64,000 nucleotides of DNA from the NCBI RefSeq assembly GCF_003991155.1, contig NZ_CP031293.1; one strand, 5' to 3'. Each line of letters opens with the position of its first letter. Position 1 is the stretch's first letter. The position numbers and the translations under genes were made by a program. This document shows positions 2,014-50,094 of the stretch, in pieces. The notes beneath the pieces are model-generated. The model saw only the letters and a program-made list of their open reading frames with translations, was not told the DNA's origin and did no database searches. The stretch is from Escherichia coli (GTDB lineage Bacteria > Pseudomonadota > Gammaproteobacteria > Enterobacterales > Enterobacteriaceae).

Positions 2014-2016
2014 TTC

Positions 2017-2940
2017 TCACTCATCCCGCGCCGGACGATTTATTTTTCTGGCGCGGCGACGGGAATCCATTGAAATCAAAATCACTGATGACAGAATCAG
2101 AAGCGTTCCCAGCCAGTCCGGTAATGTGAATGTGATCCCCAGCAACAGCAAAGAGAGCAGCGCGCTACTTAATGGTTCTGCACAGCTCAAAATGCTGGCT
2201 TTTGGACCGCCAATTAATTGTGCTCCTTTCAGGTACAGACTAAATGTCAGGGACGTACCAATGACCACCAAATAAAAAAACGCCAGAATCAAACTGCCGT
2301 TAACGACAAAGTTTGTCCCTTGTCTGGCATAAAAAGGCAACAGAATCAGACCGCCGATCAGCATACTCCAGCCGACGACAGGCAACGTGCCATAGCGGGC
2401 AATTAGCGTTGAGGGATAGGTGGTATAGAATGCCGCAGCAAATGCCGAGGCAATGCCCCAGAATAACGCGGCAGGAGAGATCGATAATGACGTCGGATTA
2501 CCGTGTGTCACCAGTAAAAAAGTCCCGACCAGCGATGTCAAAATAGCGCAAAAAACCAGAATGCCCGGGCGCGATTTACGTACCAGTGAGAACCAGGCGA
2601 CGATAATCGTCGGTGAGAGGAATTGCAGCACCGTTGCCGTGGCTGCGTTCGATTTTTCGATGGTTAGCAAAAAAGTGAGCTGTACGGTTAGCGCGCCAAC
2701 CACGGAAAAAATCAGCAGACTAATGGCATCTTTGTGATTGTTAATAATAGAAAAGATTTTATCGCCATGAACAAATGACAGCGTCAGCAGAATCAAACCG
2801 GCGAATATCAAACGCGTCATAGTCAAAAACTGCGACGACATCTGGCTTTGCTCCATGATGTATTGCGCGCAGACCCCTGAACTTCCCCACAACACGGCGG
2901 CAATCAGAACGTTCAGCATCCCCTTTCTGGTGGAACCCAT
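2017..2940 (-). CDS. yicL: EamA/DMT-family inner membrane transporter YicL
   Basis: 307 aa, polytopic and hydrophobic, with two EamA-like halves. It sits between nlpA and setC as in K-12. Confidence 0.9.
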
Positions 2941-3050
2941 TTTTCCCTCTGCATACTGTTTTGTCGTTTATGTATGCAGGCATGATAGCAAAAATGGCGA
3001 GGATGGCTCTGTTTGCGCCACGCCGATTTTTCTTAGCCCAGACTGGTGAG

Positions 3051-4235
3051 CTAAATATCTTTAATAAACAGCAGGCAAATCATCGCAATACCCAACATCC
3101 CTATCGCCAGCCAGAACAACGCGTGGTAGCTCCAGATTTCAACCATAATTCCGTCAACAGAGCCGGCGATAATCCAGCCGACGCGTGAGGTATTTGCATA
3201 TAACGTTGTCGCAGAGCCTATTTTTTCAGGCATCAGATCCTGAAAATAAAGCATGCCGATACCACAGAGAATACCAAGGAAGATGGCATTAAGAATTTGC
3301 AATTCCAGCTCAACTGCCGGAGTCGTCGCCATGAGTACGCTGGCGTAAAAACACATTCCACTCACGATAGCAATGAGCATTAATAGCCGCTTGCCAATAC
3401 GTTTCATGTAATAGCCTGCGATTAACATCATCGGAATTTCCAGACCGGCAGCGATACCAATCATTTCTCCAGCCAGTTTATCGGTTAGATGCAGTTCATC
3501 AATAATAAATAGCGGCATATTTATCATGTAGAGATTATTCGCCGCCCACATCATTGAACAGACCACAAAAAGTAGCCGCGTATCCCGCTTCCTGTGGGTG
3601 GAGGGTAAAATTTCTATGGGTTGGGTAACGACAGGAATATTTCTTTGTATTGATGGCAAAAACAACCAGACTATCAGTCCGCAAACAACAAATGCGATGG
3701 CAGCGGTGAGATACATCACTTTAAAACTAAATCCCATTGCCAGTTCATAAGCGAGCGGTGGCCCGATAACCCAGGCAAGCGAGATCTGAGCACGTAAAAA
3801 TGTACTGAACATGACCGTCTCACGGCCTGTTCTGTCGGCGTGTTCACGGGCGAGGGCGAACATTTGCGGGTTTGCAGTGGAAGCAAAACTACTCAGAAGT
3901 ACGCCCGTTGAGAGGAGAATGAAGTAGTTGCGATTCCACGCAAAAAGCGTGCAGGCCAGCACTCCAAATAAGCAACATAGCAGGATCAGTAATTTACGGT
4001 CGCCTTGTTTATCGGAGTGCCTTGCCAGAAATTGACTGACCAGAATTCCCATAATAGCGCTACCGGTGAAGAAAAAACCTACCATTATAGGACGGGCTTT
4101 CAGTTCATCTGCGAGGAATATACTTAGGGTGGGAGTCTGGAGAGCGCCCGCAATACCCGTCAGAAAGGCGACAAGTAAAAATGCCGCGGCAGTGAGATCA
4201 AGTATTTTTGATGGAGTAGTAGCCGTTTTTTGCAT
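3051..4235 (-). CDS. setC: Sugar efflux transporter SetC (MFS)
   Basis: 394 aa starting MQKTATTPSKILDLTAAAFLLVAFLTGIAGALQTPTLSIFLADELKARP, matching SetC/YicK as I recall it. 12-TM MFS architecture. Confidence 0.9.
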   Translation of the reverse strand: MQKTATTPSKILDLTAAAFLLVAFLTGIAGALQTPTLSIFLADELKARPIMVGFFFTGSAIMGILVSQFLARHSDKQGDRKLLILLCCLFGVLACTLFAWNRNYFILLSTGVLLSSFASTANPQMFALAREHADRTGRETVMFSTFLRAQISLAWVIGPPLAYELAMGFSFKVMYLTAAIAFVVCGLIVWLFLPSIQRNIPVVTQPIEILPSTHRKRDTRLLFVVCSMMWAANNLYMINMPLFIIDELHLTDKLAGEMIGIAAGLEIPMMLIAGYYMKRIGKRLLMLIAIVSGMCFYASVLMATTPAVELELQILNAIFLGILCGIGMLYFQDLMPEKIGSATTLYANTSRVGWIIAGSVDGIMVEIWSYHALFWLAIGMLGIAMICLLFIKDI

Positions 4236-4628
4236 TCTTCTGAATCACCGGGCGACAAAATATAACTGAGTTACAAATAAGTACCAGTCGAATGAGTATT
4301 GTATTAAGAATTTTTGAGTATCGCTGATACAACCAGAAAGCAATGCTAGCGCAATATTATAGGGCCAGCAATTGAGATTATTAGCAAAAGCATGTTAAGA
4401 GTTAATCACCGAATTTATATATTAATTATAGTAAGACAATGAGCTATTTTTGATAGTAAAAATAAAACAAATTTATTTGATATATTAAATGAACAAATTA
4501 ATCTTGATGGCAGTCTGATTATTGGTGAAGTTTACAGGTCAGTTTTTTTCGCCAGCGGTTAAAGGAATAGAATCGTCGTATAAAAAAAGGGTGTTCTGGG
4601 GCGTGTAAAACAACATCTTCACCTTAAT

Positions 4629-4810
4629 GGCGATACAGTTGGCTGAGAGTCAGCAGGGGGGCAAATCACCTGCAAATAAACACGGCGCATGCTGGCGCGA
4701 ATATCGCGGATGCGTTCGAGGACAGAAGAACCGACAGGCGGATTCTTCAGCCGCTCATCGTCCATCACAAAACCTTTGACCAGGTATTCCTGAAGCCGAT
4801 TGAATATTGA
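4629..4810 (-). pseudogene. Fragment of a RhuM-family (virulence-associated) gene
   Basis: The minus-strand translation ...RLQEYLVKGFVMDDERLKNPPVGSSVLERIRDIRASMRRVYLQVI... resembles the conserved RhuM core (EYLVKGF.MDDERLKNP...ERIR.IR.SE). There is no start codon, no full-length frame, and an internal gap. Confidence 0.5.
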
Positions 4811-4873
4811 GCAGTAGAAAATATCTGGATTGACAGTATTACAAGGGATTGGAGAACGTCAGAAGAGGCATTT

Positions 4874-4897
4874 TGGCGGAAGATCACAGGAGTCGAA
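4874..4897. repeat. Distal att direct repeat: a 24-bp copy of the selC 3' end
   Basis: tggcggaagatcacaggagtcgaa at 4874-4897 is identical to 50000-50023, the 3' end of intact selC on the minus strand. Imperfect similarity continues for ~15 nt on the low-coordinate side (tcagaagagg at 4859-4868 and 49985-49994). Confidence 0.9.
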
Positions 4898-4949
4898 TAT
4901 GAGAGTTAATGTTTTGATTTTAAATGATTAATACGTGTTGGATAAATGA

Positions 4950-4970
4950 GTAACCCCCATAAGAACCCCC
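4950..4970 (+). repeat. Paired ACCCCC motifs (candidate arm-type recombinase sites), distal island end
   Basis: gtaaccccc and agaaccccc lie 12 bp apart and are followed by aaa. The matching pair gtaccccc/gtaccccc lies 12 bp apart at 49867-49886 in the same orientation. Confidence 0.4.
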
Positions 4971-5032
4971 AAATGACTTTGCGTAAGGGAATGAGGCTAA
5001 AATACACAATCGAATCAATTCTTAGAGCTTTA

Positions 5033-5878
5033 TTATGAAGGTAACACTCCCGGATAGTGTTTCGCAATAATCTCATTAAGTCTGTCAACCAGTTCTGGTT
5101 TCCTGAACGTGATGTGCGCGGAGCCCTTCTTAAAGTATCTGATGCTGAACATCTCATCTTCATAGTCCTCTTTACCCTGAACTGAGTGGATGTGATCATC
5201 CAGACGAATAGTGATGTTTTCCCGGTTGTCGGGGATCGGTTTGCCGCTGAACAGGTGTAGCATTCTTTCCAGATCGGCAAGTCGATCTGCCTGTTGCCCG
5301 GTGATAAGATGAAACCCCCACCGGTCCCACCTCACCAGGTTGTTGACGATAATTTTACTGCCAAATTTACAGGGCGAGTTGGTTTTGTAATCCCAGCCCA
5401 GTCCTCTGAAAACGTTGATCACCCCTCGCTCAAACACCTCATCCTTATTCTGGTGCAGTTGTTCAAATGTGCTCAGAATGTTCGCTTCATTGATTTTCGG
5501 AAAATTATCATATTCCAGTGACCGGTACCATGTATCACGGGCCTGTGCATCCATTAAGGAAAGCATCCCTGAACGTTGCATCAAGTTTCGCCAGATTTCA
5601 CGGTCAAGGTTCCGGGTGATGGCTTTCATTGCGGTTTCCGGTTTTTCCATCAGCCAGCAACCGCAGCGAAAATCCTGTTTCATCGCCCAGTCCAGGGCGG
5701 TTTTACCTCCAATACTTTCTGTCAGTACTGAGATTTCTGCCAGTTGCCGGATAAGTGTGTCGATTTGCAGCAGCGCACTCTTTCGTACAGCCAGAATGTG
5801 GCGGATACTGGTTGAGCAGATAACGTCCGTATGCCCGTTGACCAGTTCCGGGCGGGAGATTGTGATATCTGACATCAT
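5033..5878 (-). CDS. Conserved CP4-type island protein (DUF4942-like, methyltransferase-like) found downstream of CbtA-type toxin modules
   Basis: 281-aa ORF at the island terminus. I recognise the sequence family from cbtA-containing prophage remnants. The DUF number is from memory. Confidence 0.6.
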   Translation of the reverse strand: MMSDITISRPELVNGHTDVICSTSIRHILAVRKSALLQIDTLIRQLAEISVLTESIGGKTALDWAMKQDFRCGCWLMEKPETAMKAITRNLDREIWRNLMQRSGMLSLMDAQARDTWYRSLEYDNFPKINEANILSTFEQLHQNKDEVFERGVINVFRGLGWDYKTNSPCKFGSKIIVNNLVRWDRWGFHLITGQQADRLADLERMLHLFSGKPIPDNRENITIRLDDHIHSVQGKEDYEDEMFSIRYFKKGSAHITFRKPELVDRLNEIIAKHYPGVLPS

Positions 5879-5900
5879 CGTTTTTCCTTTTGGTTTATAA

Positions 5901-5930
5901 ACGAAAACGCCAGCCCTGTTCAGGCTGGCG
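5901..5930 (-). terminator. Rho-independent terminator
   Basis: On the minus strand, the stem cgccagcc/ggctggcg with a 7-nt loop is followed by TTTTCGTTT. It lies between the stop at 5960 and the next start at 5878. Confidence 0.7.
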
Positions 5931-6168: not shown

Positions 6169-6657
6169 TTACCAGTTGAAAGTGGGTAAACCCGGCAGGC
6201 ATTCAGCGCTGGCATCCAGATGAATGAGACTGACGCCATAACGTCGGGTAAGTGTGATAACCAGACGACGGAACGTTTTTGACAGCCCCAGGCGTTTAAG
6301 CCGCAGAACCGGATATGACCACGCATCGGTACGTAACAGATATCCGCTACCTGTGAAATGAATCCATTCTGATTCACCGAAGTCACTGGTCTGGTGTGAC
6401 AGCGAGTACAGCCAGGCGTTGTCCGTTTCCGTGATATGTGCGGTACTGCAGCGTATACCGGTCAGGGCAGCAAATGGTGGCATGCAGTCTGTTGAGGCCC
6501 GGTCAGATGCATCAACAACACGAAGGGAGTGGCCATTATCACAGACCACGTTAATCAGTTCAGCGAGATTAACACCATCGACGTCAACGACAATGCGTCC
6601 CATGTTCAGTGCCTGCACGTTAATGCTGTCGGCTTCCAGCGTCAGGGCCAGTTTCAT
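6169..6657 (-). CDS. Conserved 162-aa protein translationally coupled to the CbtA-type toxin gene (YeeW-like)
   Basis: Its ATG at 6655-6657 overlaps the toxin gene's TGA (6654-6656) in an ATGA arrangement. I recognise no catalytic motif. Confidence 0.6.
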
Positions 6658-7031
6658 TGTTTCGCCTCCGGATGTTTCCCCTGGGTAATGTTATTTACCG
6701 TTCTGTAGTTATCGCGGGTCATCAGGCCGGTTGCCCTGCGAGCCCGGAGAATATCAATACTGTTTATTAACTGAGAGCGGGTACAGGCGCTGAATCCCGG
6801 CTGGTCGGTACGTATCAGTGCGTATTTTTCAACGAGAAAGTTCACCGCATCACACAGTGAAATGCCAGCTTCAATATGCTGCTCAATCACACGTTCATCG
6901 GCGAACGGTGTGTCATTCAGTGTGAGGCCATAGTGCTGGTCCAGCAACCGGGACAGCAGTGTCTGCCAGATGGTGACGGGAGACGGGCAGCGAGATACCT
7001 CCCGTACATGTGTGTCGGATAATGTTTTCAT
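6654..7031 (-). CDS. CbtA/YeeV/YkfI/YpjF-family type IV toxin
   Basis: 125 aa containing ...[65 protein letters not shown]..., which is typical of CbtA-family toxins. Confidence 0.9.
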
Positions 7032-7077
7032 CTTAAGTTCTCTGTAACTGGTAGTGCTAAAGGTGAGAGCTTCGGGG

Positions 7078-7452
7078 TTATGAGGTGGTTGCGGGTGCTG
7101 GTGTCGGATAAACAGTCAGATAAACGTAACCACAGGAGCCGAGGGTGTCGGCTTCGCAGGTCAGCCCTTTTGCATACAGCGTGACGGTATGCTGATGTCG
7201 GGGATTCAGTTCACCGCTGGTGAGCATGAGTTCCAGTTGTTTCATCAGCAGCGGAAAGGCCTGGTCCAGATGGTATGCATCTGCGTCGCTGAAGCGGCCT
7301 CTGATACCCGCGCGGTCGGCAAGGTAATGCAGGTGGTTACCCTCCTGCACCAGACGGGCGCCAAAACAGGGCCTCACTGTGCAGGGAAGCCCCCACCAGG
7401 GGCGGTCGTGATTGTCGTCGGGATGAGTTATCCCGGAGAGTTTGTCTGACAC
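7078..7452 (-). CDS. CbeA/YeeU/YafW/YfjZ-family antitoxin
   Basis: 124 aa reading ...[71 protein letters not shown]... It lies immediately upstream of the toxin. Confidence 0.9.
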
Positions 7453-7501
7453 GATAAAATCCTCTCTGAAAAGTGGTTAAGAATGGTTTAACGATGACAG
7501 G

Positions 7502-27484: not shown

Positions 27485-27859
27485 TTGTCTGCTGAATCTT
27501 TATACGGAATTCTTTTCAGTATGCGTACACGAATTGATTATCTGGCGGATAAATACAGTTTTACTGAGCTGAATGAGTCTCCCCGTCTTCGCCGGCAGTG
27601 GCAGGATGTTCTGGAGGAGTGTCGGCAGACAGAGGCAGGGCCAGAAGAACGGTTGCGTATTGCACTGTTGAATGTGGATTACGTCACCAGTTTTGAACTG
27701 CCTTTTCGCTTGTTGCTTACCCGTACACCACAACTGACTGCTATGCTGCGTGAAGAATGGGATATCAGCCAGAAAAATGTGGTGTTCAACGATAAACGCT
27801 TTGGCTGCGTGTACAGCCTGAAGGCCAGTCTTTGTGGTGTGCTTCAGGCCGATGCTTAG
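27485..27859 (+). CDS. Hypothetical island ORF whose 3' end is replaced by an IS66-family fragment
   Basis: The start is uncertain (TTG at 27485 or ATG at 27521). The last residues, GVLQADA, derive from the IS66 tnpC fragment that begins at ~27834. Confidence 0.35.
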   Translation: MSAESLYGILFSMRTRIDYLADKYSFTELNESPRLRRQWQDVLEECRQTEAGPEERLRIALLNVDYVTSFELPFRLLLTRTPQLTAMLREEWDISQKNVVFNDKRFGCVYSLKASLCGVLQADA

Positions 27860-27985
27860 GCGTTATACGAATCCGGCAGAGTAACGGAAGCCGCGTGTAT
27901 GGCTCATTCCCGGAGAAGAATCCACGATGTGCATGTAAGAGTGCCAACCGACATCACCACGGAAGCCCTGCAGCGTATCGGCAAT
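27834..27985 (+). mobile_element. Internal fragment of an IS66-family tnpC (~150 bp)
   Basis: It aligns at the nucleotide level with the reverse complement of ~33800-33960 in the full tnpC of this window (ggtgtgcttcaggccgatgctta...gcgttatacgaatccggcag...cagcgtatcgg). There is a 13-bp deletion and scattered mismatches. Confidence 0.8.
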
Positions 27986-28315
27986 GGTTTGTTCCAGACC
28001 ATGCCGCTTACAGACCTCGAAATCAGTCACCGTGCAAGGTTCATAACCGCCAATCTGAAATGCCACCACCACAAAATCGGCATCCTGTAAGGCTTCTTTC
28101 TGTTGGGTGTGGCAGGTGATTTTGCCGCTGGCCCCTGCTGAATCCATCAGCTTACGCACCACAATATGCGACTCTTCCCGGCGGGTGGGATCAATGTCCA
28201 TCAGGGCAATATGCGCCGTTTTCAGCGCCTCACGATGGAACACATCACCAAGAATATTTTTAACGAAAATCGTCGAACCAGCGCCGATAAATGTAATTTT
28301 GGGTGCAGACATCAT
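27986..28315 (-). pseudogene. melA: 5' quarter of an alpha-galactosidase gene (melA-like, GH4)
   Basis: MMSAPKITFIGAGSTIFVKNILGDVFHREALKTAHIALMDIDPTR...[16 protein letters not shown] is almost identical to the K-12 MelA N-terminus. Homology stops at the IS66 junction. Confidence 0.85.
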
Positions 28316-28392
28316 GCAGATCTCCTGGCTTGCTTGATAACTTCATCATGGCAGGCGAATCTGCAGAAAACCTCCGGCTTCCAGATTGAGAA

Positions 28393-28446
28393 TTCCCATA
28401 AACTCAGATCCTGCGTGAAGCATCAGTAAATCTGAGTTTATGGGAA
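28393..28446. promoter_or_regulatory. melAB promoter operator: perfect 17-bp inverted repeat (MelR-binding sites)
   Basis: ttcccataaactcagat (28393-28409) and atctgagtttatgggaa (28430-28446) lie upstream of the melA fragment. The sequence matches the MelR site as I recall it. Confidence 0.7.
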
Positions 28447-28595
28447 TAAATTACCTGAAAAGAAGAGTTTTCGGCCTCATGATGCTCGGACGGACCCCTC
28501 TCCTCTCTGGGTAGAGGGTGAAAACCGTGCTCCCACTCGCAGTCATCCTCCCTCACTCCTGCCATAATTCTGATATTCCAGGAAAGAGAGCCATC

Positions 28596-28628
28596 CATGA
28601 ATACAGATCTCTTTATGTGCAGCAGTGC
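28596..28628 (+). pseudogene. melR: First ~10 codons of melR
   Basis: ATGAATACAGATCTCTTTATGTGCAGCAGT encodes MNTDLFMCSS, compared with K-12 MelR MNTDTFMCSS. The sequence then switches to the antisense of a PTS gene. Confidence 0.6.
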
Positions 28629-29011
28629 TTTAATCATCCCCGTGCCAGTAATAGCAGGGGTGAAAGATCTCGAAATAACACTGATAATCAGGGCGACGAT
28701 CCCAGCCGGCTTCGCGTTTTTATCGCTGCCTGCCGCGCCTTTCTTCTCCAGCAGCACATTATAGAGCAGGCGATAAACCTGCTGTACCTCATTACCAATA
28801 ACTATCTGGAACTGAAGCCTTTCTCCACCACGCAGATCAGGCCAGGGAGGGCACCAATCTGCGCATTGTTAACCTTTGAGCTGTCGTTGAACTCGGGGTA
28901 AGCAATGGTGAGCATACGGATGTTTTCCGCACCGCCCATCACGTAGAGGATTTTGTCTGCTGTTTCGTTATAGTTCATAGTGTCCCCTAGTGTTGGCGCA
29001 AAAAAGACCAA
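28629..29011 (-). pseudogene. Remnant of a glucose/beta-glucoside-class PTS EIIBC gene
   Basis: MNYNETADKILYVMGGAENIRMLT... is an EIIB-type N-terminus but lacks the CATRLR active-site motif. A stop follows, and then ...LISVISRSFTPAITGTGMIKALL (EIIC-like) reads in another frame. Confidence 0.6.
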
Positions 29012-29225: not shown

Positions 29226-29366
29226 CGCCACGGATAATCAGGCATTTCTGAGTTGTTTCAAGAAGGCGGCATTATTTGTGCTGCTCGTATCCCGGTCATC
29301 AGTGAACCGGTGAACGTAAATCAGCCGGAGGCACGATTTGGGCAAAAGAGATTTCCTGACAGGCAA

Positions 29367-29389
29367 GAAGCCAGCGAATGGCTGGCTTC
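29367..29389 (-). terminator. Hairpin downstream of tnaB
   Basis: The stem gaagccagc/gctggcttc with loop gaatg starts 10 nt after the tnaB stop. The U-tract is weak (TTGCCTGTC). Confidence 0.45.
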
Positions 29390-29398
29390 CTGAAGGAT

Positions 29399-30646
29399 TT
29401 AGCCAAATTTAGGTAACACGTTAAAGACGTTACCGAACCAGCATAAAATTACGGTTATACCAAAGAGAATGACAATCGCCGGAATAAGATTGCCGCCCCA
29501 GACTGTGAACATCTGATTGGGAAATTTCTTGCGGGCTTTGATTGCCAGCACTGCGGGAATAATGACCGCCCAGATGGTGGCGCACAGTCCGGCACCGCCG
29601 ATCCCGTAAATAAAGCCGTTCGGGAAGATCAGATACAACAACGCGGGTGGCAGGAAGGTTAACAGCACGGTTTTGAAACGCCCGGCGTGGGAGTTATCAA
29701 TCTTAAACAGATCCGCCAGATAATCGAACAATCCCAGCGTGACACCAAAGAACGAACTGGCAACAGCTAAGTTAGAGAACACCAGCAGGCAAAACTCGAT
29801 AATCCCATGCTGTTTGGTGCCGAGGAATGATTTCACCAGCGAATCAACGTTGCCGCCTGAGGAGATTATCGCCTTAAAGCTTTCTCGCGGGATATTCCCC
29901 ATCGTGCAATAGAGCCAGAAGAGATAAATCACCAGCGCCAGCAGCGAACCGAAGACCACGCTTTTGATTAGCTTATCTTTGCGTTTTCCATAGCAAATAA
30001 TCAGGCTGGGAATATTGCCGTGGAAACCAAATGACGCCAGACACACCGGCAAAGCCATAAAGATATACGGGAAGTAAGACTTACCCGCAGTGGAGCTGGC
30101 TGCATCGCGCAGAATGGAATAATCGGCCTGGAAGAAGAGAGAGCCAAACACGATCACAAAGGAGATAATCTTCAGCCCGAGGAACAATGAGGTAATACGA
30201 CTGGCGGCTAACGAACTTATCCACAATACGCTGGCAACGAAAATGGCTGTGCAGACTCCGACAATACGTGGATTAGCGTGATAACTCAGATTCATTGATA
30301 TCGTTTCGCTAATGATTGCGCCGTTAGCAGAAATATAGGCATAAGTGAGGATATAGAGAACGAAGGCAACGGTAATACCGCTGATAATGTTCCAGGTGTT
30401 ACCGATTAAATCTTTGGCGATGGTGTTAAAACTGGATCCGACGGGATAGTTTAAATTTGCTTCTAATAACAATAACCCGGAATGAAGCATTGAAAACCAG
30501 GCAATGATAAGGATAAAGGCTCCCCAGAAAAACCAGGCACCGGCAAGATCAACAGGTAAAGCAAACATCCCACCGCCAATTACCGTACCGGCTATAACCA
30601 TAACACCCCAAAATGCAGAGTGTTTTTTTTCAGCTTGTTCAGTCAT
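29399..30646 (-). CDS. tnaB: Low-affinity tryptophan permease TnaB
   Basis: 415 aa, collinear with K-12 TnaB with scattered substitutions (for example MTEQAEKK versus MTDQAEKK). Confidence 0.95.
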   Translation of the reverse strand: MTEQAEKKHSAFWGVMVIAGTVIGGGMFALPVDLAGAWFFWGAFILIIAWFSMLHSGLLLLEANLNYPVGSSFNTIAKDLIGNTWNIISGITVAFVLYILTYAYISANGAIISETISMNLSYHANPRIVGVCTAIFVASVLWISSLAASRITSLFLGLKIISFVIVFGSLFFQADYSILRDAASSTAGKSYFPYIFMALPVCLASFGFHGNIPSLIICYGKRKDKLIKSVVFGSLLALVIYLFWLYCTMGNIPRESFKAIISSGGNVDSLVKSFLGTKQHGIIEFCLLVFSNLAVASSFFGVTLGLFDYLADLFKIDNSHAGRFKTVLLTFLPPALLYLIFPNGFIYGIGGAGLCATIWAVIIPAVLAIKARKKFPNQMFTVWGGNLIPAIVILFGITVILCWFGNVFNVLPKFG

Positions 30647-30737: not shown

Positions 30738-32153
30738 TTAAACTTCTTTCAGTTTTGCGGTGAAGTGACGCAATACTTTCGGTTCGTAGGTAAAGGTTAA
30801 CCCTTTAATATTCGCCGCGTTCTCTTTCACATGTTTAAAGGCTTCAATAATGAAGTCCATATGTGTTTGAGTATATGTTGCGCGCGGAATGGTTAAACGC
30901 AGCAGTTCAGCCGGGCATGGCAGTTGTTTACCGGTTTTCGGATCGCGGCCTAACAGGAAAGAGCCAATTTCTACCGCACGGATACCGGCGACTTTATACA
31001 GCTCGCAGGCCAGCGCCTGTGCCGGGAACTGATCTGCCGGGATATGCGGCAGTAGTTTACCGGCATCAACGAATGCCGCGTGACCGCCCGCCTGCTGGCA
31101 GACAACGCCAATCTCTTCCAGGCCATCGACCAGATACTGCACCTGCGCAATACGATAAGCCAGCCAGTCCAGATTCATGCCGTCATACAGACCTACCGCC
31201 AGACGCTCCATAGCGCCGCCTTCCAGGCCGCCATATGTCGGGAAGCCTTCCTGCACCACGCAAAGGGTTCTGCATTCGGTGTACACATCAAAGAAGCTGT
31301 CGTCTTTCATGCACAGCAGGCCGCCCATCGGCACCATCGCATCTTTCTTGGCGGACATCGCCAGCATATCGGCATATTTGTAGGTTTCGCGGGTGATTTG
31401 CTCGATGGTCCAGTCTTTGTATTCTGCTTCACGCTGCTTGATGAAATAGGCGTTTTCGGCAAAGCGTGCGGAGTCCATTACCACCGGAATATCGTATTTC
31501 TTCGCGATGCTGTACATCGCTTTTAAGTTTGCCAGTGAAACCGGCTGACCACCTGCGGAGTTACTGGTGATGGTTGCAACGATATACGGCACGTTATTCG
31601 GGCCAACTTCTTCAATACCGCGTTCTAATCCCTCAAGGTCAAAGTTGCCTTTAAAGTCGTAACGCACGCCCGTATCGAAGGCTTCTTTGATATAGACGTT
31701 ACGCACGGTACAGCCGTTAATCTGGCTATGGCCCTGCGTGGTATCAAAGAAATAGTTAGAGAACGCCACCATTTTGCTGCGATCCAGGCCTTTTTCCTGC
31801 TCGCGTTTTTTAATCAGTACCGGAATATAGATTTGCTCTGCACCACGGCCCTGGTGAGTCGGAATAGTGTATTGATAACCAAAGATATTTTTCACTGACT
31901 CGGCTAACGCGTAGTAGCTGCGGCTGCCGCTGTAAGCTTCGTCGCCGCGCATCATCGCGGCCTGCATACTCTGCGTCACCGCCCCGGTACCGCTGTCGGT
32001 CAGTAAATCGATAAACACATCTTCACTATCCAGCAGGAACGGGTTCATGCCGGCTTTAATAATTGCTTCTTCACGATAAGCGCGAGTGGTACGTTTTACT
32101 GGCTCAATAACACGAATGCGGAACGGTTCAGGGAGATGTTTAAAGTTTTCCAT
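30738..32153 (-). CDS. tnaA: Tryptophanase TnaA
   Basis: From [32 protein letters not shown]... it is 471 aa. The PLP-lysine region reads [12 protein letters not shown]. Confidence 0.95.
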
Positions 32154-32359
32154 TACGTAATCCTTCATTTATTTTAAGGACAGAAAATTACGGAGATATT
32201 GCAAATGCAATACCCGATAGTTCGCTAAAATATTTGCAAGAGACATCATTTATAAAAATGAATGATAGTCTTTACAAAAGCAGAAATAAGATATGCCAAA
32301 CAGACAGGTTAGATGGAATTCAATCTATTTGACAAAAATGATGGTTACAGAAAGGCAAG

Positions 32360-32434
32360 TTAAGGGTGGTGTTCAACAATCTTGTTGTCGATATTGAACC
32401 ATTTTGAGGTCACACATATATGTAAGATATTCAT
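32360..32434 (-). CDS. tnaC: tna operon leader peptide TnaC (24 codons), variant
   Basis: My own translation is MNILHICVTSKWFNIDNKIVEHHP followed by TAA. K-12 reads ...IVDHRP followed by TGA. W12, D16 and P24 are conserved. Confidence 0.9.
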   Translation of the reverse strand: MNILHICVTSKWFNIDNKIVEHHP

Positions 32435-32509
32435 AATGCACTTATCCTCGAAAGACACGAGGTTACAGTATAATACTCAAGAAATTTGTCTATCCTGAAA
32501 TTGTTTAAA

Positions 32510-32525
32510 TGTGAATCGAATCACA
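32510..32525. promoter_or_regulatory. CAP/CRP site of the tna promoter
   Basis: tgtgaatcgaatcaca is a perfect palindrome, TGTGA-N6-TCACA. It lies ~75 nt upstream of the tnaC start, as at the K-12 tna promoter. Confidence 0.8.
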
Positions 32526-33488
32526 GTTGGTTATTAGTGATATAAAATGACAATGATTTTGCATCATTAAAAATATTTATCAATTACGTTGATAAAACTA
32601 TTACATGCAGGTGTTAATAAATGGTGATAAAAATGGTAAATGACAGAGATGTAATGTTGAAGATGATTCCTTGATGAGAATTATGTTCTACGGAAGTGGT
32701 ACATCAACTTTTTGGGAAGGTATATAAATAAAGCAGAATAGATCACGTTTGGCACACATCTGATTACTCATGTAATTAACTAATTTCAGCACGGTTTTTC
32801 TTGCTTTTTTAGAGTAATTAATATACCGATGCCCAAGATGAATATCATAAGAAATACTATCAAAATAATGTCTGGAATGAAATATTATACAGATGAATGA
32901 TTGCGGTTACCTGATGATTTAAATAATGAATATGTGATTTGCTTGTTATATAAGAAAATTTAAATATTGCCGATAGTGTATTGAATAGTGCCTGCTTAAC
33001 GGGGTCCCCTGTTAAGTTGTCAAGCATGTTTATGAGACTGCTGGGGGATAAAAAGTCCCGGCACACATCCTGCTAACAGGACATCACTGCACTGTCTGAG
33101 CGATAAACGCTTGGTTGTGTCGTATTCCACGGCTCATTTTACGTGTGTAGTACGTTTGGGTATTGGTTTTCGGAGAGCAGCAAAGGCTGACAGGAACAAT
33201 GCCCGTTTGATGAGTTTATTGTCTCGTCTTGGCGGATGTTCGCCACATATTGATGAACCGTAACGCTAGGTAAAAAGGGGAAGCAAGACCCCACTGTTTC
33301 ACTTCAAAAGCCTTGCTTATGTAGAGTGATGAGATGGAGTGCCAGAAGGCCTGGAGTGGCAGAATAACGACTGCGGCATGCGTACCGGGAGCGATCATGG
33401 TTTGTTGTACCAGTGCCTGAGTGATGTCTGCCGCGGGGCGTTTTTCAAGATGAGGCTCAAGCTTGCAGGGCTGCCAGCTTCTTTTCAC

Positions 33489-34883
33489 TTAGCGAAGCCA
33501 GTTTTTCCGGCCTACGGCTACTCCCCGTAAGGCGTTCTCTGCGATGTTGTTGTCGATTTCCACCCAGCCATTGCTGCAGTACACGTTCAGGCCATCCCAC
33601 TGTTTCAGCAGGTATGCGAACGCTTTTGCCGTATCTGAGTGACGCGACAGTGTTTTCATCTGTTGCTGTATCCAGTCATACAGTGACTGCATCAGTGGCG
33701 CGGCTCTGGCTTTTCTTGCCGCCAGACGCTGTTCTGCTGAACAGCCCCGGACCTCTGCCTCGATGGCATACAGTTCACCGATACGCTGCAGGGCTTCCGT
33801 GGTGATGTAGGTGGGCGCTCTTGCATGCACATCGTGGATTTTTCTCCGGGCATGAGCCATACACGCGGCTTCCGTTATTCTGCCGGATTCGTATAACGCC
33901 CGGTAACCACCGTAAGCATCGGCCTGAAGCACACCGCTGTAACCGGCCAGGTGATTTTGTGGATGGATACCTTTCCGGTCCGGACTGTACGCGAACCAGA
34001 CCGCCGGGGGCATCTGTGAACCGGCGTTACGGTCATCACGGACGTAGACCCACAGCCGGGCTGTCCGGGTTTTACCGCTGCCCGGCTCCTGGACCGGGAC
34101 GGGGATATCATCAGCATGGACTTTACCGGGCATCAGCACATACTGGCGCAGGACGTCATACAGCGGCTCCAGCAGTTCAGCAACAGCACCTGTCCAGCGC
34201 CCCAGTGTGGCACGGCTCAGCTCCACTCCCTGACGACGGTATATTTCTGACTGGCGGTATAACGGCAGATGGTCTGCATATTTCCCGGTGACAACATGGG
34301 CCAGAAGCCCCGCTCCGGCATAACTGCGTGCAATGGGTTTTGAAGGTACTGGTGCCTGCACGATATGGTCGCACCGGCAACAGGCCTGTTTCGGACGTTG
34401 TGTTTCGATAACCTTAAAGGCGCTGCTGATAAGCTCCAGTTGCTCTGACACATCACATCCCAGAGAACTGAGTTCACCACCACAGGCAGGACAGCATTCC
34501 TCTTCCGGCCGGATAACCCGGGTTTCACGGGGAAGTGAGGCCGGTAACGGTTTACGGGCTGAAGACTGGCGCAGGGCGGATGGCAGTACCGGGTCATATT
34601 GCTCACCCAGCGTTTCCGCCATTTCTTCCTGAAGTGCGCTGATTCGCTCCTGTGCTTCCTGTATCTGCCGTTCGGTTTTTGCACGAAGTTTTTCTGAGCT
34701 TTTACCGAACTGCATACGTTGCAGTTTCGCAACCAGCGCCTTCAGCCGGTTGATTTCGGAAGCATAAGCCGCCACCCGCTGTGAGAGCAGGCGGTTGTAT
34801 TCAGCCATCTGGCGGATGGTGTCCTGTTGCGTCTGCAACAGTGCCCGCAGGCGGGCGTTCTCATGAGCAAGTGAGGTGTCCAT
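33489..34883 (-). pseudogene. IS66-family transposase TnpC, 3' end disrupted
   Basis: The 464-aa ORF ends ...[16 protein letters not shown], whereas family members continue ~50-60 aa past GRKNWLF. The downstream sequence keeps weak similarity in other frames. Confidence 0.7.
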
Positions 34884-34902
34884 ATCCTCACTTTACAACG
34901 GG

Positions 34903-35250
34903 TTATATGCGGATTCCAGCGCGTTCCGTTCGTTTCGGGTGCTTCCAGTTGATACCTTCAAGAAGCATGGATAACTGAGCCGGAGTAAGGTGCACCTTGC
35001 CGTCACGGGTGACTGGCCAGACGAAGCGGCCCCGCTCCAGGCGTTTGGTGAAGAGGCACAGTCCGTCACTGTCAGCCCACAACACTTTTATCTGGTCACC
35101 CCGGCGTCCGCGGAAGATGAACAGGTGTCCGGAGAACGGGTCATCCTTCAGGACGTTCTGAACTTTTGATGCCAGGCCGTTAAAGCCATTTCGCATATCG
35201 GTGATACCTGCAACCAGCCAGATACGCGAACCTGCAGGGAGAGATATCAT
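34903..35250 (-). CDS. IS66-family TnpB (orf2)
   Basis: 115 aa reading MISLPAGSRIWLVAGITDMRNGFNGLASKVQNVLKDDPFSGHLFIFRGRRGDQIKVLWAD. Confidence 0.9.
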   Translation of the reverse strand: MISLPAGSRIWLVAGITDMRNGFNGLASKVQNVLKDDPFSGHLFIFRGRRGDQIKVLWADSDGLCLFTKRLERGRFVWPVTRDGKVHLTPAQLSMLLEGINWKHPKRTERAGIRI

Positions 35251-35927
35251 CAGTGGCTGCTCCCTTTTATTTCGCGGATAAGTGTCTGTAATAACGCCGG
35301 CGTCAGTTTACCTTTAAGCCTGAGAGTTCCGGCCGGCAGAACCAGCTCACAACACAGACTGTCGGACGGTGTATTTATCTGCTCTGGTTCCTGTGCGGGG
35401 GCCGGGATTTTATTATCCGGCTCCGGCGTTAACGTCACGGGAAGCAGTGCCGGCATATTTTTTCCGGAAGGCAGCAGGCCACCTTTCCGGTATTGATGGC
35501 GCCAGTTGAAGAGCAGGTTATCGTTGATTCCGTTTTCCCGGGCGATCTGCGCCACACAGGCTCCGGGCTGCAGTGACTGCTCCACTAAGGCGATTTTAAA
35601 CTCATAAGGGAAGTTGGGCCGCCGGGGACGTTTTTTTACCACGGGGGCTTCGGATATAACGGTGCTTTCAGGACGTACGACTGGTACCGTGGAAAATTGT
35701 CCGTAAAGGCAGGCATCAAGTTCCTGCTCCGACATGCCTGCGGGCAAAGGCCACGAAAGGCCAGCTCTCCGAAAGCGCACGAACATACTACAAACTGTTG
35801 ATTTTGGTACACCCAGGCGACGCCCGGCCACAACCCGGGGTAAATGTTCTTCAAAGTGAAGACGTAAAGCTTCAGTGATCCAGGTCCGGTGTTTCATACG
35901 ATAGTGTCCATTAAAAATGATGGACAT
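35250..35927 (-). CDS. IS66-family TnpA (orf1), long form with an extra N-terminal HTH
   Basis: ...RRPNFPYEFKIALVEQSLQPGACVAQIARENGINDNLLFNWRHQYRKG... Its stop overlaps the tnpB start (ATGA). Confidence 0.8.
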   Translation of the reverse strand: MSIIFNGHYRMKHRTWITEALRLHFEEHLPRVVAGRRLGVPKSTVCSMFVRFRRAGLSWPLPAGMSEQELDACLYGQFSTVPVVRPESTVISEAPVVKKRPRRPNFPYEFKIALVEQSLQPGACVAQIARENGINDNLLFNWRHQYRKGGLLPSGKNMPALLPVTLTPEPDNKIPAPAQEPEQINTPSDSLCCELVLPAGTLRLKGKLTPALLQTLIREIKGSSH

Positions 35928-36836: not shown

Positions 36837-38099
36837 ATGGCTATCATCATGGGGATCATCGCTGACGATTTTACTGGCGCGACTGATATTGCCTGCTTTA
36901 TGGCAGAGAATGGTTTTCGGGTTGCGCTGTTGCCCGGTTTGCATGCACTCACGCAGTCATGGGATGAAGAGGCTGATGCAATAGTCATTTCACTGAAAAG
37001 TCGTTCATTACCCGCGAATCAGGCAATTGAGCAGACTTTGCTAAGTTATCATTGGTTGCGTGACTGTGCGGGGGCGCAGCAGATCTATTTCAAATATTGC
37101 TCAACATTTGATTCCACTGCAGATGGCAATATCGGCCCGGTCAGCGATGCACTGATGAAGGTGATGGGCACACCTTATGTCGTGCATTGTCCCGCTTTGC
37201 CCCAAAATGGCCGAACAGTTATCCATGGACATCTTTTTGTTAACGGTATACCCCTTAACGAATCCGGCATGGAAAAACACCCCCTGAATCCAATGACCGA
37301 CACTAACCTGCTGCGCGTACTGGCTGCACAAACCCCCAATAGAGTTGGTAATCTTGATCTGAGGACAGTTCAACAGGGCGAGCAAGCCATCACCACCGCA
37401 CTTTCCCGTTGTCAGGCTGAAGGGAAGCAACACATTATTGTCGATACATTAACTGAAAATGATCTGCAAAGCCTGGCAAATGTATTACGCCATACACCTT
37501 TACTGGCTGGGGGATCCGGACTGGGTGGGGCGTTAGCCGCTTTTTTACAGCAACATCCTTATACGCCAGCCTCCGCGTTTCCCAATCCTGCCAGAACGGT
37601 AATCTTCTCCGGAAGTTGTTCAGTGATGAGTAATCGACAGGTGGATGCTTATAAATCGCATGCAGCCACGCAGTTGCTTGATGTTGCTCGTTGTCTGGAC
37701 GATGGCAATAGATATATCGATCAATTACTTGAATGGACAATTGCGCACATCAATGATCCGCTTGCTCCGTTGATTTACGCCACTCAACCTGCGGATGTGT
37801 TGAAATCTATACAGCAAACCTGGGGTGAACACGCGGCAAGTAAAGCCATTGAACAAACTTTTGCGCAGCTTAGCCAAAAATTGCAGGTCGCGGGTGTCAA
37901 CACTTTTATTGTTGCTGGGGGAGAAACTTCCGGGACTGTAGTGGAAGCGCTAAATGTGAAACGGCTAACAGTGGGGAGCACTATTACGCCGGGCGTACCA
38001 TGGGTTTTTTCGGCAGAACCGCCCCTGGCACTGGCGCTGAAATCTGGCAATTTTGGGGAGCCTGATTTTTTCATTAAGGCTCAGGAGCATGGATTATGA
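36837..38099 (+). CDS. DUF1537 four-carbon acid-sugar kinase (OtnK/YgbK-like)
   Basis: The start is trimmed to MAIIMGIIADDFTGATDIACFMAENGFRV, with a GAGGGAG Shine-Dalgarno. It is collinear with YgbK motifs (IADDFTGATD, YFKYCSTFDST..GNIGPV, GGETSG, LKSGNFG). Confidence 0.85.
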   Translation: MAIIMGIIADDFTGATDIACFMAENGFRVALLPGLHALTQSWDEEADAIVISLKSRSLPANQAIEQTLLSYHWLRDCAGAQQIYFKYCSTFDSTADGNIGPVSDALMKVMGTPYVVHCPALPQNGRTVIHGHLFVNGIPLNESGMEKHPLNPMTDTNLLRVLAAQTPNRVGNLDLRTVQQGEQAITTALSRCQAEGKQHIIVDTLTENDLQSLANVLRHTPLLAGGSGLGGALAAFLQQHPYTPASAFPNPARTVIFSGSCSVMSNRQVDAYKSHAATQLLDVARCLDDGNRYIDQLLEWTIAHINDPLAPLIYATQPADVLKSIQQTWGEHAASKAIEQTFAQLSQKLQVAGVNTFIVAGGETSGTVVEALNVKRLTVGSTITPGVPWVFSAEPPLALALKSGNFGEPDFFIKAQEHGL

Positions 38100-47205: not shown

Positions 47206-47541
47206 ATGTTTAGAACAGAAGACATCATCGATGAGATAACCCAATGGATTGATTCAAATTTACATAAGCCGCTGAAGATAGAGGATGTTGCTGCGCGGGC
47301 AGGATACTCGAGGTGGCATCTTCAGCGGATTTTTGTGCAGGTGAGAGAAATTAGCCTTGGGAAGTACATAAGAGATACGAAACTTAGACTTGCAGCAAAA
47401 GATCTTATCGCGACTAATGAGCCAGTGATGGTTATCGCCTTTAAATATGGATTCGATTCACAACAAACTTTTACTCGGATTTTCTTTAAAAAATATAAAT
47501 TGCCACCATTGAAATATAGGGTAATGACTCCAACTTATTGA
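47206..47541 (+). CDS. MarA/SoxS/RamA-like small AraC-family regulator, with its 3' end altered by IS1
   Basis: ...[30 protein letters not shown]...[15 protein letters not shown]1 enters after codon ~105. Without IS1 the frame would continue ...LKYRNAERRKKLHQPMS*. Confidence 0.8.
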
Positions 47542-48038
47542 TAGTGTTTTATGTTCAGATAATGCCCGATGACTTTGTCATGCAGCTCCACCGATTTTGA
47601 AAACGACAGCGACTTCCGTCCCAGCCGTGCCAGGTGCTGCCTCAGATTCAGGTTATGCCGCTCAATTCGCTGCGTATATCGCTTGCTGATTACGTGCAGC
47701 TTTCCCTTCAGGCGGGATTCATACAGCGGCCAGCCATCCGTCATCCATATCACCACGTCAAAGGGTGACAGCAGGCTCATAAGACGCCCCAGCGTCGCCA
47801 TAGTGCGTTCACCGAATACGTGCGCAACAACCGTCTTCCGGAGCCTGTCATACGCGTAAAACAGCCAGCGCTGGCGCGATTTAGCCCCGACGTATCCCCA
47901 CTGTTCGTCCATTTCCGCGCAGACGATGACGTCACTGCCCGGCTGTATGCGCGAGGTTACCGACTGCGGCCTGAGTTTTTTAAATGGCGGAAAATCGTGT
48001 TGAGGCCAACGCCCATAATGCGGGCGGTTGCCCGGCAT
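47535..48038 (-). CDS. insB: IS1 InsB reading frame (expressed as the InsAB' frameshift fusion)
   Basis: ...[40 protein letters not shown]... matches IS1 InsB. Confidence 0.9.
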
Positions 48039-48232
48039 CCAACGCCATTCATGGCCATATCAATGATTTTCTGGTGCGTACCGGGTTGAGAAGCGGTGTA
48101 AGTGAACTGCAGTTGCCATGTTTTACGGCAATGAGAGCAGAGATAGCGCTGATGTCCGGCGGTGCTTTTGCCGTTACGCACCACTCCGTCAGTAGCTGAA
48201 CAGGAGGGACAGCTGATAGAAACAGAAGCCAC
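47957..48232 (-). CDS. insA: IS1 InsA
   Basis: 91 aa starting [43 protein letters not shown]... Confidence 0.95.
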
Positions 48233-48522
48233 TGGAGCACCTCAAAAACACCATCATACACTAAATCAGTAAGTTGGCAGCATCACCGAAATATAGAAAC
48301 GCGGAAAGGAGAAAAAAACTTCACCAGCCCATGTCTTAAGTTCTGTCAGTATGGCTACAGCCTGTTTGCTGAGTGGCACAAGGTGTGGTGTTCGAATCTT
48401 GGTTCCCCAATGAGAGTTCAGGCGGTGTGGGCAAATAAAAAAGAAAACATAAATAAAACCATCCGACCGTTGGTGGGGCTGGATGGTTATTCATTATTTC
48501 TATGTCACTGAACTTTCATTCA

Positions 48523-49704
48523 TCAGATCTGCTCAGAAAGTGAATCAATGTAGTCAGCATACCACTGCATCATTTCACGGCGACCATCCAGATACTGGGC
48601 ATGATTATAGGTACCTCTGATAGCGTTTTTATCCATATGAGCTAACTGCATTTCAATCCAGGCAGAATTAAAGCCCTGTTCGTGCAGAATTGTACTCATG
48701 GTGTGTCTGAAACCGTGCCCTGTGAGTCTTCCCTTATATCCTAGTAATTCAATGACTTGGTTTATGCTTTCCTTACTAATTGGTTTGCGAGGATCGTTCC
48801 TACCGATAAAGACCAGAGGATGATGTTTTGAGATTGGTTCAAGTTGCTTAAATAGCGCAATGACCTGCTCAGAGAGCGGCACAATATGAGGTCGCTTCAT
48901 CTTCATTACTTCTGCCGGGATCTCCCATAATTTTGTCTCAAAATCGATATCCTCCCAGCGTGCGAAACGCAATTCTTGAGTTCGTACACCAGTTAGCATA
49001 ATGATTTGAGTGGCTGTCTTAGTGATAATACTTCCGGTATAACCCGCCAGATCATTGAGGAAGTGGGGAAGTTCATTAGCAGTAAGAAAGGGAAAATGTA
49101 CTTTTTTCGGTGTAGCTAAAGCACTGGCAAGATCGGGAGCAGGGTTGTAGTTAGCCCGACCAGTAACAATTGCATAGCGGAACACCTCTCCACAGCGCTG
49201 GCGGACCTTACGCATTTTCTCCAGAGCTCCACGTTTTTCCATTTTACGCAATGCTTCCAGTAACTCCATTGGTTTGATTTCAGCAATAGGGCGTTTGCCA
49301 ATATAGGGAAAAATATCTTTTTCAAAGGTATCAATGATTTCATCACGATAGCGTAATGACCACCGATCGGCTTTTGACTGATGCCATTCTCGAGCAACGG
49401 CCTCAAATGTGTTTTTCAAACTCATTTGCAGCGCGATTTTTTCTTCTTTTTTTGTCTCACCCGGATCGCATCCTGCAGCGAGGATTTTCCTAGCTTCACT
49501 GCGTTTTTCGCGAGCGTCGGCTAGAGTTACATCGGGGTATACGCCAATAGAAAGCATCTTTTCTTTGCCAGCAAAGCGGTACTTCATACGCCAATATTTA
49601 GAACCATTAGTGTTAATGAGTAGATACATACCGCCACCATCAGACAGCTTATAGGGCTTTTCTTTTGGTTTTGCGGTTTTCACTTTAATATCAGTTAACG
49701 CCAT
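48523..49704 (-). CDS. P4-type tyrosine integrase
   Basis: 393 aa. The N-terminus MALTDIKVKTAKPKEKPYKLSDGGGMYLLI is DUF4102-like. The catalytic region has HGFRHTMST and GTYNHAQY. It lies adjacent to the selC 3' end. Confidence 0.9.
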   Translation of the reverse strand: MALTDIKVKTAKPKEKPYKLSDGGGMYLLINTNGSKYWRMKYRFAGKEKMLSIGVYPDVTLADAREKRSEARKILAAGCDPGETKKEEKIALQMSLKNTFEAVAREWHQSKADRWSLRYRDEIIDTFEKDIFPYIGKRPIAEIKPMELLEALRKMEKRGALEKMRKVRQRCGEVFRYAIVTGRANYNPAPDLASALATPKKVHFPFLTANELPHFLNDLAGYTGSIITKTATQIIMLTGVRTQELRFARWEDIDFETKLWEIPAEVMKMKRPHIVPLSEQVIALFKQLEPISKHHPLVFIGRNDPRKPISKESINQVIELLGYKGRLTGHGFRHTMSTILHEQGFNSAWIEMQLAHMDKNAIRGTYNHAQYLDGRREMMQWYADYIDSLSEQI

Positions 49705-49999: not shown

Positions 50000-50094
50000 T
50001 GGCGGAAGATCACAGGAGTCGAACCTGCCCGGGACCGCTGGCGGCCCCAACTGGATTTGAAGTCCAGCCGCCTCACCGGAGACGACGATCTTCC
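50000..50094 (-). tRNA. selC: tRNA-Sec (selenocysteine, UCA anticodon)
   Basis: The minus strand reads GGAAGATCGTCGTCTCCGGTGAGGCGGCTGGACTTCAAATCCAGTTGGGGCCGCCAGCGGTCCCGGGCAGGTTCGACTCCTGTGATCTTCCGCCA. This is the 95-nt E. coli selC sequence, with its long extra arm and 8-bp acceptor stem. Confidence 0.97.

Follow-up and report, generated by a model that had tools for sequence, protein, structure and literature searches.

In Escherichia coli K-12, the tryptophanase operon tnaCAB lies between mnmE and mdtL, and its leader gene tnaC encodes TnaC, an arrest peptide that acts by inhibiting RF2-mediated release at a UGA stop codon (PMC8450073; PMC10941005). The preliminary description of the locus studied here had put the K-12 mechanism in the same terms, in agreement with both papers. 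The importance of the conserved residues W12, D16, I19 and P24 has been documented (PMC10941005, PMC3902921), codon-level saturation mutagenesis of tnaC has been published (a 2020 study, as described in PMC10631719), and a role of boxA in tna is credited to Konan & Yanofsky 2000, as cited in PMC10941005. The inhibition by TnaC falls preferentially on RF2, and release of the peptide by RF1 is said to be efficient (Emmanuel et al. 2019, as related in PMC8450073 and PMC10314930).

Position 23 of the peptide lies beside the peptidyl-transferase centre, and the hypersensitive laboratory mutants TnaC(R23H) and TnaC(R23F) are altered there (van der Stel et al. 2021; Judd et al. 2024). R23H emerged as an intragenic suppressor of D16E. 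As a single mutation, it gives a basal lacZ level more than 20-fold higher and brings the half-maximal L-Trp concentration for arrest to nearly threefold below 0.32 mM, and it was interpreted as Trp-hypersensitive, not Trp-independent (PMC8429421). The same change suppresses loss-of-function changes at W12, D16 and P24, gives higher CAT-reporter expression without added Trp, and, as has been proposed, would slow the accommodation of RF2 at the peptidyl-transferase centre (PMC10941005). As for residue 21, cryo-EM indicates that D21 touches the ribosome by its peptide bond only, stacking on A2062 (PMC8450073); because that bond is its only contact, a conservative D21E change is expected to have a mild effect.

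The window of our study is the whole stretch of 64,000 nucleotides of E. coli DNA that was analysed. It holds a tnaC gene at 32360..32434 on the minus strand: the reverse complement of these positions reads MNILHICVTSKWFNIDNKIVEHHP, 24 codons, followed by TAA, with the ATG at 32434-32432 and the stop at 32362-32360, and translation of the plus strand of the same interval yielded no TnaC-like ORF. The preliminary description had given the right interval but named no strand. In a profile-HMM search, the peptide scored 37.0 bits against NCBIfam TIGR02616 (tnaC_leader; curated cutoff 23.55, E = 2.2e-9). Pfam PF08053 (Tna_leader) is recorded for the gene, and RefSeq/PGAP labels it tnaC in NZ_CP029747.1 (WP_072275316.1). 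A 44-nt tnaC probe matched the window once, where no match was expected by chance. The gene lies on the same strand as tnaA, and 206 nt separate its stop from the tnaA ATG (32153). The HMM score, the synteny and the annotation rule out a chance ORF.

Compared with K-12, the first 20 residues of the peptide are identical, H22 and P24 (with the same CCT codon) are kept, and both leaders have 24 codons; the K-12 peptide has D21, R23 and UGA where this one has E21, H23 and UAA. In the alignment to the native gene of E. coli ATCC 11775, the native 3' end AAGATTGTCGATCACCGCCCTTGA (KIVDHRP-TGA) stands against AAGATTGTTGAACACCACCCTTAA (KIVEHHP-TAA) in the window, and the differences are D21E (GAT>GAA), R23H (CGC>CAC), TGA>TAA in the stop, and three silent changes at codons 13, 15 and 20. 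The residues W12 (32401-32399), D16 (32389-32387), K18, I19 (32380-32378) and P24 (CCT, 32365-32363) are unchanged, with E21 at 32374-32372 and H23 at 32368-32366; the spacing W-x3-D-x7-P is present, and the stop follows Pro24 directly (CCT TAA). Translation, TIGR02616 and the ATCC 11775 alignment thus bear out what had been claimed from the letters of the sequence, namely a TnaC leader with D21E, R23H and a TAA stop in which W12, D16 and P24 are kept. The K-12 C-terminus, DHRP-UGA, had also been given correctly, and the stop and two of the final four residues do differ from it.

The tnaCAB operon of the window is a second copy, located on a genomic island and not at the native tna locus. The usual E. 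coli tnaCAB has mnmE and mdtL as its neighbours, whereas this copy is flanked by IS remnants. The annotation of NZ_CP029747.1, mapped to the window, places an IS110 fragment, a truncated ISCro1 (IS66-family) transposase gene and IS66 tnpB and tnpA directly upstream of the operon (33084..35927, minus strand). Downstream are a truncated beta-glucoside PTS (bgl-PTS) gene and a truncated melA (27824..28978, minus strand), together with an IS66-family transposase fragment on the strand opposite to these two genes. NZ_CP029747.1 belongs to E. coli 2016C-3878, to which the window is 99.998% identical bar one extra IS1B, and this genome keeps an intact native tnaC (with the K-12 allele), tnaA and tnaB at 4523055-4526103, about 101 kb from the island copy and in the same orientation. 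These flanks and the native copy 101 kb away exclude an allele of the native locus. The preliminary description had missed this context, that of a second operon carried by an island, and the high divergence of its spacer. Our literature search turned up no report of such an additional tna operon at selC.

The island spans about 46 kb (approximately 4235-50094). Its integration site is the tRNA-Sec gene, selC (50000..50094, minus strand), beside which lies a tyrosine integrase ORF (48523-49704), and the other end is near a rhuM fragment and setC (approximately 4235-4800). Mobile debris of IS66, IS110, IS3 and IS1 elements is scattered over it. The cargo includes a sugar-acid catabolic cluster with otnK (36837-38099), an aldolase, a DeoR regulator and hydroxypyruvate isomerase-like and bile acid:Na+ symporter-like genes; a CbtA/YeeU toxin-antitoxin pair (approximately 6654-7500); and antirestriction, RadC and pseudouridine-utilisation genes. 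The extra IS1B is an insertion of 768 bp (window 47520-48287) that is absent from NZ_CP029747.1, and the 9-bp overlap at its junction is consistent with a target-site duplication.

On the upstream side, homology to native E. coli tna loci starts at the CAP site, where the sliding identity rises from about 46% to 97%. This CAP/CRP-binding site, TGTGATTCGATTCACA (32510..32525, minus strand), which we take to be one from the established knowledge of the K-12 tna promoter, is identical to that of native E. coli in the alignment. The promoter core and 5' leader that follow (32435..32509, minus strand) are about 97% identical to native E. coli, a level that the sliding comparison extends into the 5' part of tnaC; they contain a -10-like TATACT (within 32476-32465) and the Shine-Dalgarno region (within 32447-32435), both on the minus strand. 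Transcription presumably starts about 24 nt upstream of the tnaC ATG, a position taken over from K-12. At the other end of the leader gene, a boxA-like element runs from codon 23 through the stop (32356..32368, minus strand) and reads CACCCTTAACTTG against the K-12-type CGCCCTTGATTTG; the R23H and TGA>TAA changes both fall inside it and are its two differences from the native element.

The spacer between tnaC and tnaA (32154..32359, minus strand) is 206 nt long, against 220 nt in native E. coli, and about 67% identical to that of K-12. Its first 80 nt or so (32359-32280, minus strand) are C-rich and G-poor in composition and form the presumed rut site for Rho: these 80 nt hold 18 C, 10 G and 12 YC in the island copy and 18 C, 12 G and 11 YC in native E. 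coli. The loss of the rut site, which we considered, is unsupported, since this composition matches native E. coli. The first 40 nt after the stop are poorer in C, with 8 against the 13 of native E. coli. Toward the 3' end of the spacer, about 40 nt upstream of the tnaA ATG, lies a hairpin, GGGTATTGC-ATTT-GCAATATCT, with a T-rich tail (32194..32215, minus strand). Island and native Escherichia spacers alike are predicted to form a 9-10-bp hairpin some 40-60 nt before the tnaA ATG, despite their divergence of about 33%; comparing the island hairpin with the native Escherichia ones, we found one-sided (wobble) changes and no compensatory pairs. The spacer matched no Rfam family. With no Rfam match, and with a hairpin that is common to native spacers and has no compensatory pairs, we rejected an intrinsic terminator or structured RNA in the spacer. 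The ribosome-binding region of tnaA is conserved with respect to native E. coli in the alignment.

The island leader shares with that of K-12 an identical CAP site, a near-identical promoter, a C-rich, G-poor region after the stop and a spacer of about 200 nt. Since the CAP site, promoter, sensor and stall residues, stop, C-rich stretch and spacer length of the attenuator are all retained, the leader very probably encodes a working Trp-sensing arrest peptide and subjects a second tryptophanase operon to Rho-dependent attenuation, like the canonical E. coli attenuator. We infer from this conservation that stalling and Rho termination would both take place in the island operon. Following CRP-dependent initiation of transcription, a ribosome would translate the 24 codons of tnaC; at high free L-Trp, the nascent TnaC, through W12, D16, I19 and P24, and the bound Trp would block release-factor hydrolysis of TnaC-tRNAPro at the stop. 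The stalled ribosome would then cover the adjacent C-rich rut site, Rho could not terminate, and tnaA-tnaB would be transcribed (mechanism as in PMC10941005 and PMC3902921).

To see how far the end of the island TnaC departs from natural tnaC genes, its alleles were counted as exact 30-mers in 5,426 complete E. coli genomes, by megablast with a 28-nt word requirement; other synonymous 30-mers exist, and the native-allele counts are lower bounds. At the native locus, DHRP-TGA occurs in at least 3,139 genomes and DHRP-TAA in at least 1,724 of the 5,426 (32%), while R23H is found as DHHP-TGA in at least 17 genomes, including NCTC86, and as DHHP-TAA in at least 6. EHHP-TAA is the allele of the island, present in 21 genomes. 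The locus at NZ_CP012380.1 4109581-4109655 is an example of the polymorphic stop (DHRP-TAA/TGA), and native R23H is found, for example, at NZ_CP019778.1 4260848-4260877 (NCTC86) and at NZ_CP053234.1 2717454-2717483. The presence of R23H on both TGA and TAA native backgrounds implies a recurrent origin. An R23L allele of tnaC exists too. Co-adaptation of H23 with TAA finds no support, as R23H is equally rare at TGA-type (17 of about 3,156) and TAA-type (6 of about 1,730) native loci.

By exact-protein look-up, the DHHP peptide is present on at least 1,000 contigs and the EHRP peptide on 113. The latter is the D21E-only allele (MNILHICVTSKWFNIDNKIVEHRP), whose 113 contigs are assigned to E. coli and also, by UniRef, to Pantoea alhagi. 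Native DHRP-TAA shares its stop with the island allele, and DHHP-TAA shares both TAA and R23H and is one substitution (D21E) away from it; these alleles sit at the native locus, before an E. coli-type spacer (TTTACCCTTCTGTAGCC...), in contrast to the divergent spacer of the island.

The same variants recur outside E. coli. Our species survey of 80 representative genomes found a recognisable tnaC in 74, with stops TAA in 61, TAG in 9 and TGA in 4; among the 34 enterobacterial representatives whose TnaC ends Pro-stop, the stops are TAA (29), TAG (3) and TGA (2). The representatives of E. ruysiae, E. whittamii and a third Escherichia all have DHRP-TAA, and the UGA of E. coli is an exception even in its own genus. 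Pro followed by TAG was seen at three loci each of Kluyvera, Cardiobacteriaceae and Rodentibacter. TAG is read by RF1 only, and if arrest occurs at termination, TnaC must block RF1 in these species. E21 appears in Pseudocitrobacter, whose TnaC ends EHRP-TAA and so has the E21 and TAA of the island peptide, and in one Citrobacter species. In Leclercia, Silvania, Atlantibacter, Citrobacter amalonaticus and Yokenella, TnaC normally ends in HHP; the end reads NHHP-TAA, and these peptides have in common with the island HHP-TAA and W-x3-D-x7-P. In all these Enterobacteriaceae, the N-terminal half of TnaC differs from that of the island, the tnaA genes are 78-83% identical to the island tnaA at the DNA level, and the spacers 34-39%; such divergence means that they are not the source of the island operon.

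All three differences of the island allele are thus ordinary natural variants. The preliminary description had rightly singled out TAA as a departure from K-12, but this stop is not unusual, since at least 32% of native E. coli loci and 29 of 34 enterobacterial representatives use it. Its framing of the leader as a natural test of C-terminal context and release-factor identity loses its force as well, given that TAA is common, R23H has already been assayed, D21E is natural and the RF1/RF2 preference has already been studied. As a TnaC variant, the island allele is of little import: each substitution is either a common natural polymorphism or already characterised, and RefSeq already labels the gene tnaC. 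Two side results may be of interest for research on ribosome arrest peptides. The structural model rests on RF2 acting at UGA, yet tnaC ends in UAA in about one third of E. coli and in most Enterobacteriaceae, and in RF1-only UAG in some genera. R23H, the "hypersensitive" mutation of the laboratory, has recurred on no fewer than two native E. coli backgrounds, that of Escherich's strain NCTC86 among them, and is fixed in the island copy.

How these changes act together concerns the tryptophan set-point of the operon. Going by what single mutants have shown in published work, R23H is expected to reduce the Trp threshold and increase basal expression, and UAA, by admitting RF1, to work against induction. 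R23H, the two boxA changes and the C-poorer first 40 nt argue for higher basal or lower-threshold induction, and UAA argues for the opposite; the net effect of R23H, UAA and D21E on the set-point is not predictable, and the set-point is possibly shifted.

A shift toward greater sensitivity is a fair possibility, though one to which we give somewhat less than an even chance. The operon would then be Trp-hypersensitive or semi-constitutive, with R23H slowing release-factor accommodation and the boxA and proximal rut changes weakening Rho loading, and it would yield tryptophanase and indole at lower Trp than the native operon. The rise of more than 20-fold in basal lacZ and the roughly threefold lower half-maximal L-Trp with R23H alone (PMC8429421), the raised CAT expression without added Trp (PMC10941005), the two substitutions in the boxA-like element and the 8 C of the first 40 nt of the spacer, where native E. 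coli has 13, all point in this direction. Against it, the R23H and R23F alleles of the laboratory were placed in a K-12 leader with D21 and UGA, whereas in the island R23H stands together with D21E, UAA and another spacer; at UAA, RF1 can act, and it reportedly releases TnaC with efficiency (in the account given by PMC8450073); and the rut-like composition over 80 nt equals that of native E. coli.

The reverse, a less inducible operon to which RF1 would give termination of TnaC at UAA despite bound Trp, so that the island would add little tryptophanase, seems unlikely to us. In its favour, Konan and Yanofsky reportedly found in 1999 that replacing UGA with UAA or UAG gave about half the expression, with induction retained. 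The preferential inhibition of RF2 and the efficient release by RF1 speak for it too (Emmanuel et al. 2019, as relayed by PMC8450073 and PMC10314930). But UAA ends 32% of native E. coli tnaC genes and most of those of Enterobacteriaceae, and TAG, open to RF1 only, ends those of Kluyvera, Cardiobacterium and Rodentibacter; many such taxa produce indole, so that non-UGA stops are evidently compatible with a working system, and R23H should in any case counteract faster release. The toeprinting assays and tnaC-tnaA'-lacZ fusions that had been proposed for comparing this leader with that of K-12 have in part been anticipated, R23H having already been tested in this way (PMC8429421); such experiments have largely been done for the changes taken individually. 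What the carriers do offer is one cell with a natural pair of differently built attenuators, usable to ask whether leader variation tunes indole output.

The genes behind the leader are intact. The island tnaA encodes a tryptophanase of 471 aa (30738..32153, minus strand; TIGR02617, 1010.6 bits, cutoff 825.8), and tnaB a low-affinity tryptophan permease of 415 aa (29399..30646, minus strand; NF007235, 913.5 bits, cutoff 497). Their DNA is 98.2% (tnaA) and 96.2% (tnaB) identical to the native genes of the same strain, within normal E. coli diversity, as two native E. coli copies compared with each other give 98.5% and 95.8%. The spacer behaves otherwise: its identity to the spacers of E. coli, E. 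ruysiae, E. whittamii and one further Escherichia representative is 59-67%, while these four are 79-98% identical to each other. At this level of identity, the pause and termination sites mapped in K-12 may not be conserved in the island spacer. It is still Escherichia-like, with 34-39% identity to the spacers of Citrobacter, Pseudocitrobacter and Leclercia. A divergence of about 33% over some 230 nt beside a tnaA that differs by 1.8% is not neutral drift since a duplication, and it assigns the 3' end of tnaC and the spacer to another ancestry than that of the coding regions. Judged by these identities, the island operon is a localised mosaic, which would be either a deep paralogue or xenologue with its coding parts homogenised to E. 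coli, or an operon with a recombined-in leader segment.

Candidate donors gave no closer match. Another genus (Citrobacter, Leclercia, Kluyvera and others) was rejected, with a tnaA that is only 77-83% identical and spacers at 34-39%. The E. albertii representative contig in this comparison stops 27 nt before tnaA, and the returned loci included none from E. fergusonii. The flanks hold no donor context: upstream of the CAP site there is no match to any tna locus, and after tnaB the last 60-90 nt of Escherichia tna homology (29309..29398, minus strand) mark the end of the transferred segment. Metagenome scans with an island-specific spacer 24-mer and with the degenerate pattern DNKIVEHHP-TAA returned zero matches each. 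A plasmid origin was likewise discarded, as the only real plasmid match in PLSDB is a Salmonella plasmid at 81%, the others being chromosomes mislabelled as plasmids. Salmonella is normally indole-negative. The plasmid in question (Salmonella enterica, NZ_CP022662.1, 132.6 kb) carries tnaA-tnaB at 89786-92545 with 81% identity; the match starts past the leader region, and no tnaC is annotated under it.

Tentatively, and with more doubt than confidence in the proposal as a whole, we suggest that the tnaC 3' end and spacer diverged anciently and stem from a lineage, so far unsampled, at the margin of the genus Escherichia or just beyond it, that recombination or gene conversion made the coding regions uniform with tnaA and tnaB of E. 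coli, and that R23H, UAA and the remodelled boxA and rut set a Trp threshold different from the native one, which would give carriers a two-tier control of tryptophan catabolism and indole signalling. We consider it improbable that the operon is a decaying, redundant duplicate, a passenger in an IS-riddled island whose regulation is unselected and whose divergent spacer reflects lost constraint. The surroundings are indeed a patchwork of truncated genes and IS fragments, the intact native operon makes the island copy redundant, and in one assembly the island tnaA is split; yet the three ORFs are intact in the window and every regulatory element is retained, the divergence of about 33% is confined to some 230 nt with a flanking tnaA at 1.8%, which is not neutral decay and points to different ancestry, and the operon shows no difference among 21 genomes that come from several hosts and continents. 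The most interesting results of our analysis are incidental to the leader allele itself: the second operon, which an island carries and whose attenuator is mosaic and deeply divergent, and the natural UAA (32%) and recurrent R23H polymorphisms of E. coli.

Of the 5,426 complete E. coli genomes, 21 carry the island operon, with 100% identity; each of the 21 has two tna places and keeps an intact native operon as well. The carriers, whose sources are humans, cattle, pigs, sheep, dogs, mink and wastewater in several countries and on several continents, represent a minor but globally distributed E. coli lineage. That all 21 copies are identical is due to the clonal relatedness of the genomes and possibly to constraint too. 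In the wider assembly collection, the exact island TnaB occurs in 349 indexed blocks, and the exact island TnaC peptide on 349 contigs. The split tnaA is that of GCA_053000185.1 (positions 4695-5909 of locus L087), where two ORFs of 113 and 258 aa are called, which points either to a disrupted island tryptophanase in that isolate, and with it to a copy whose loss would carry no penalty, or to an error of assembly. In GCA_964048855.1 (positions 1812-4005 of locus L089), the island tnaC is preceded, at a distance of about 200 nt, by an IS1 and a sulfatase-family gene; the tnaC sequence is present at 4213, though no gene is called there.
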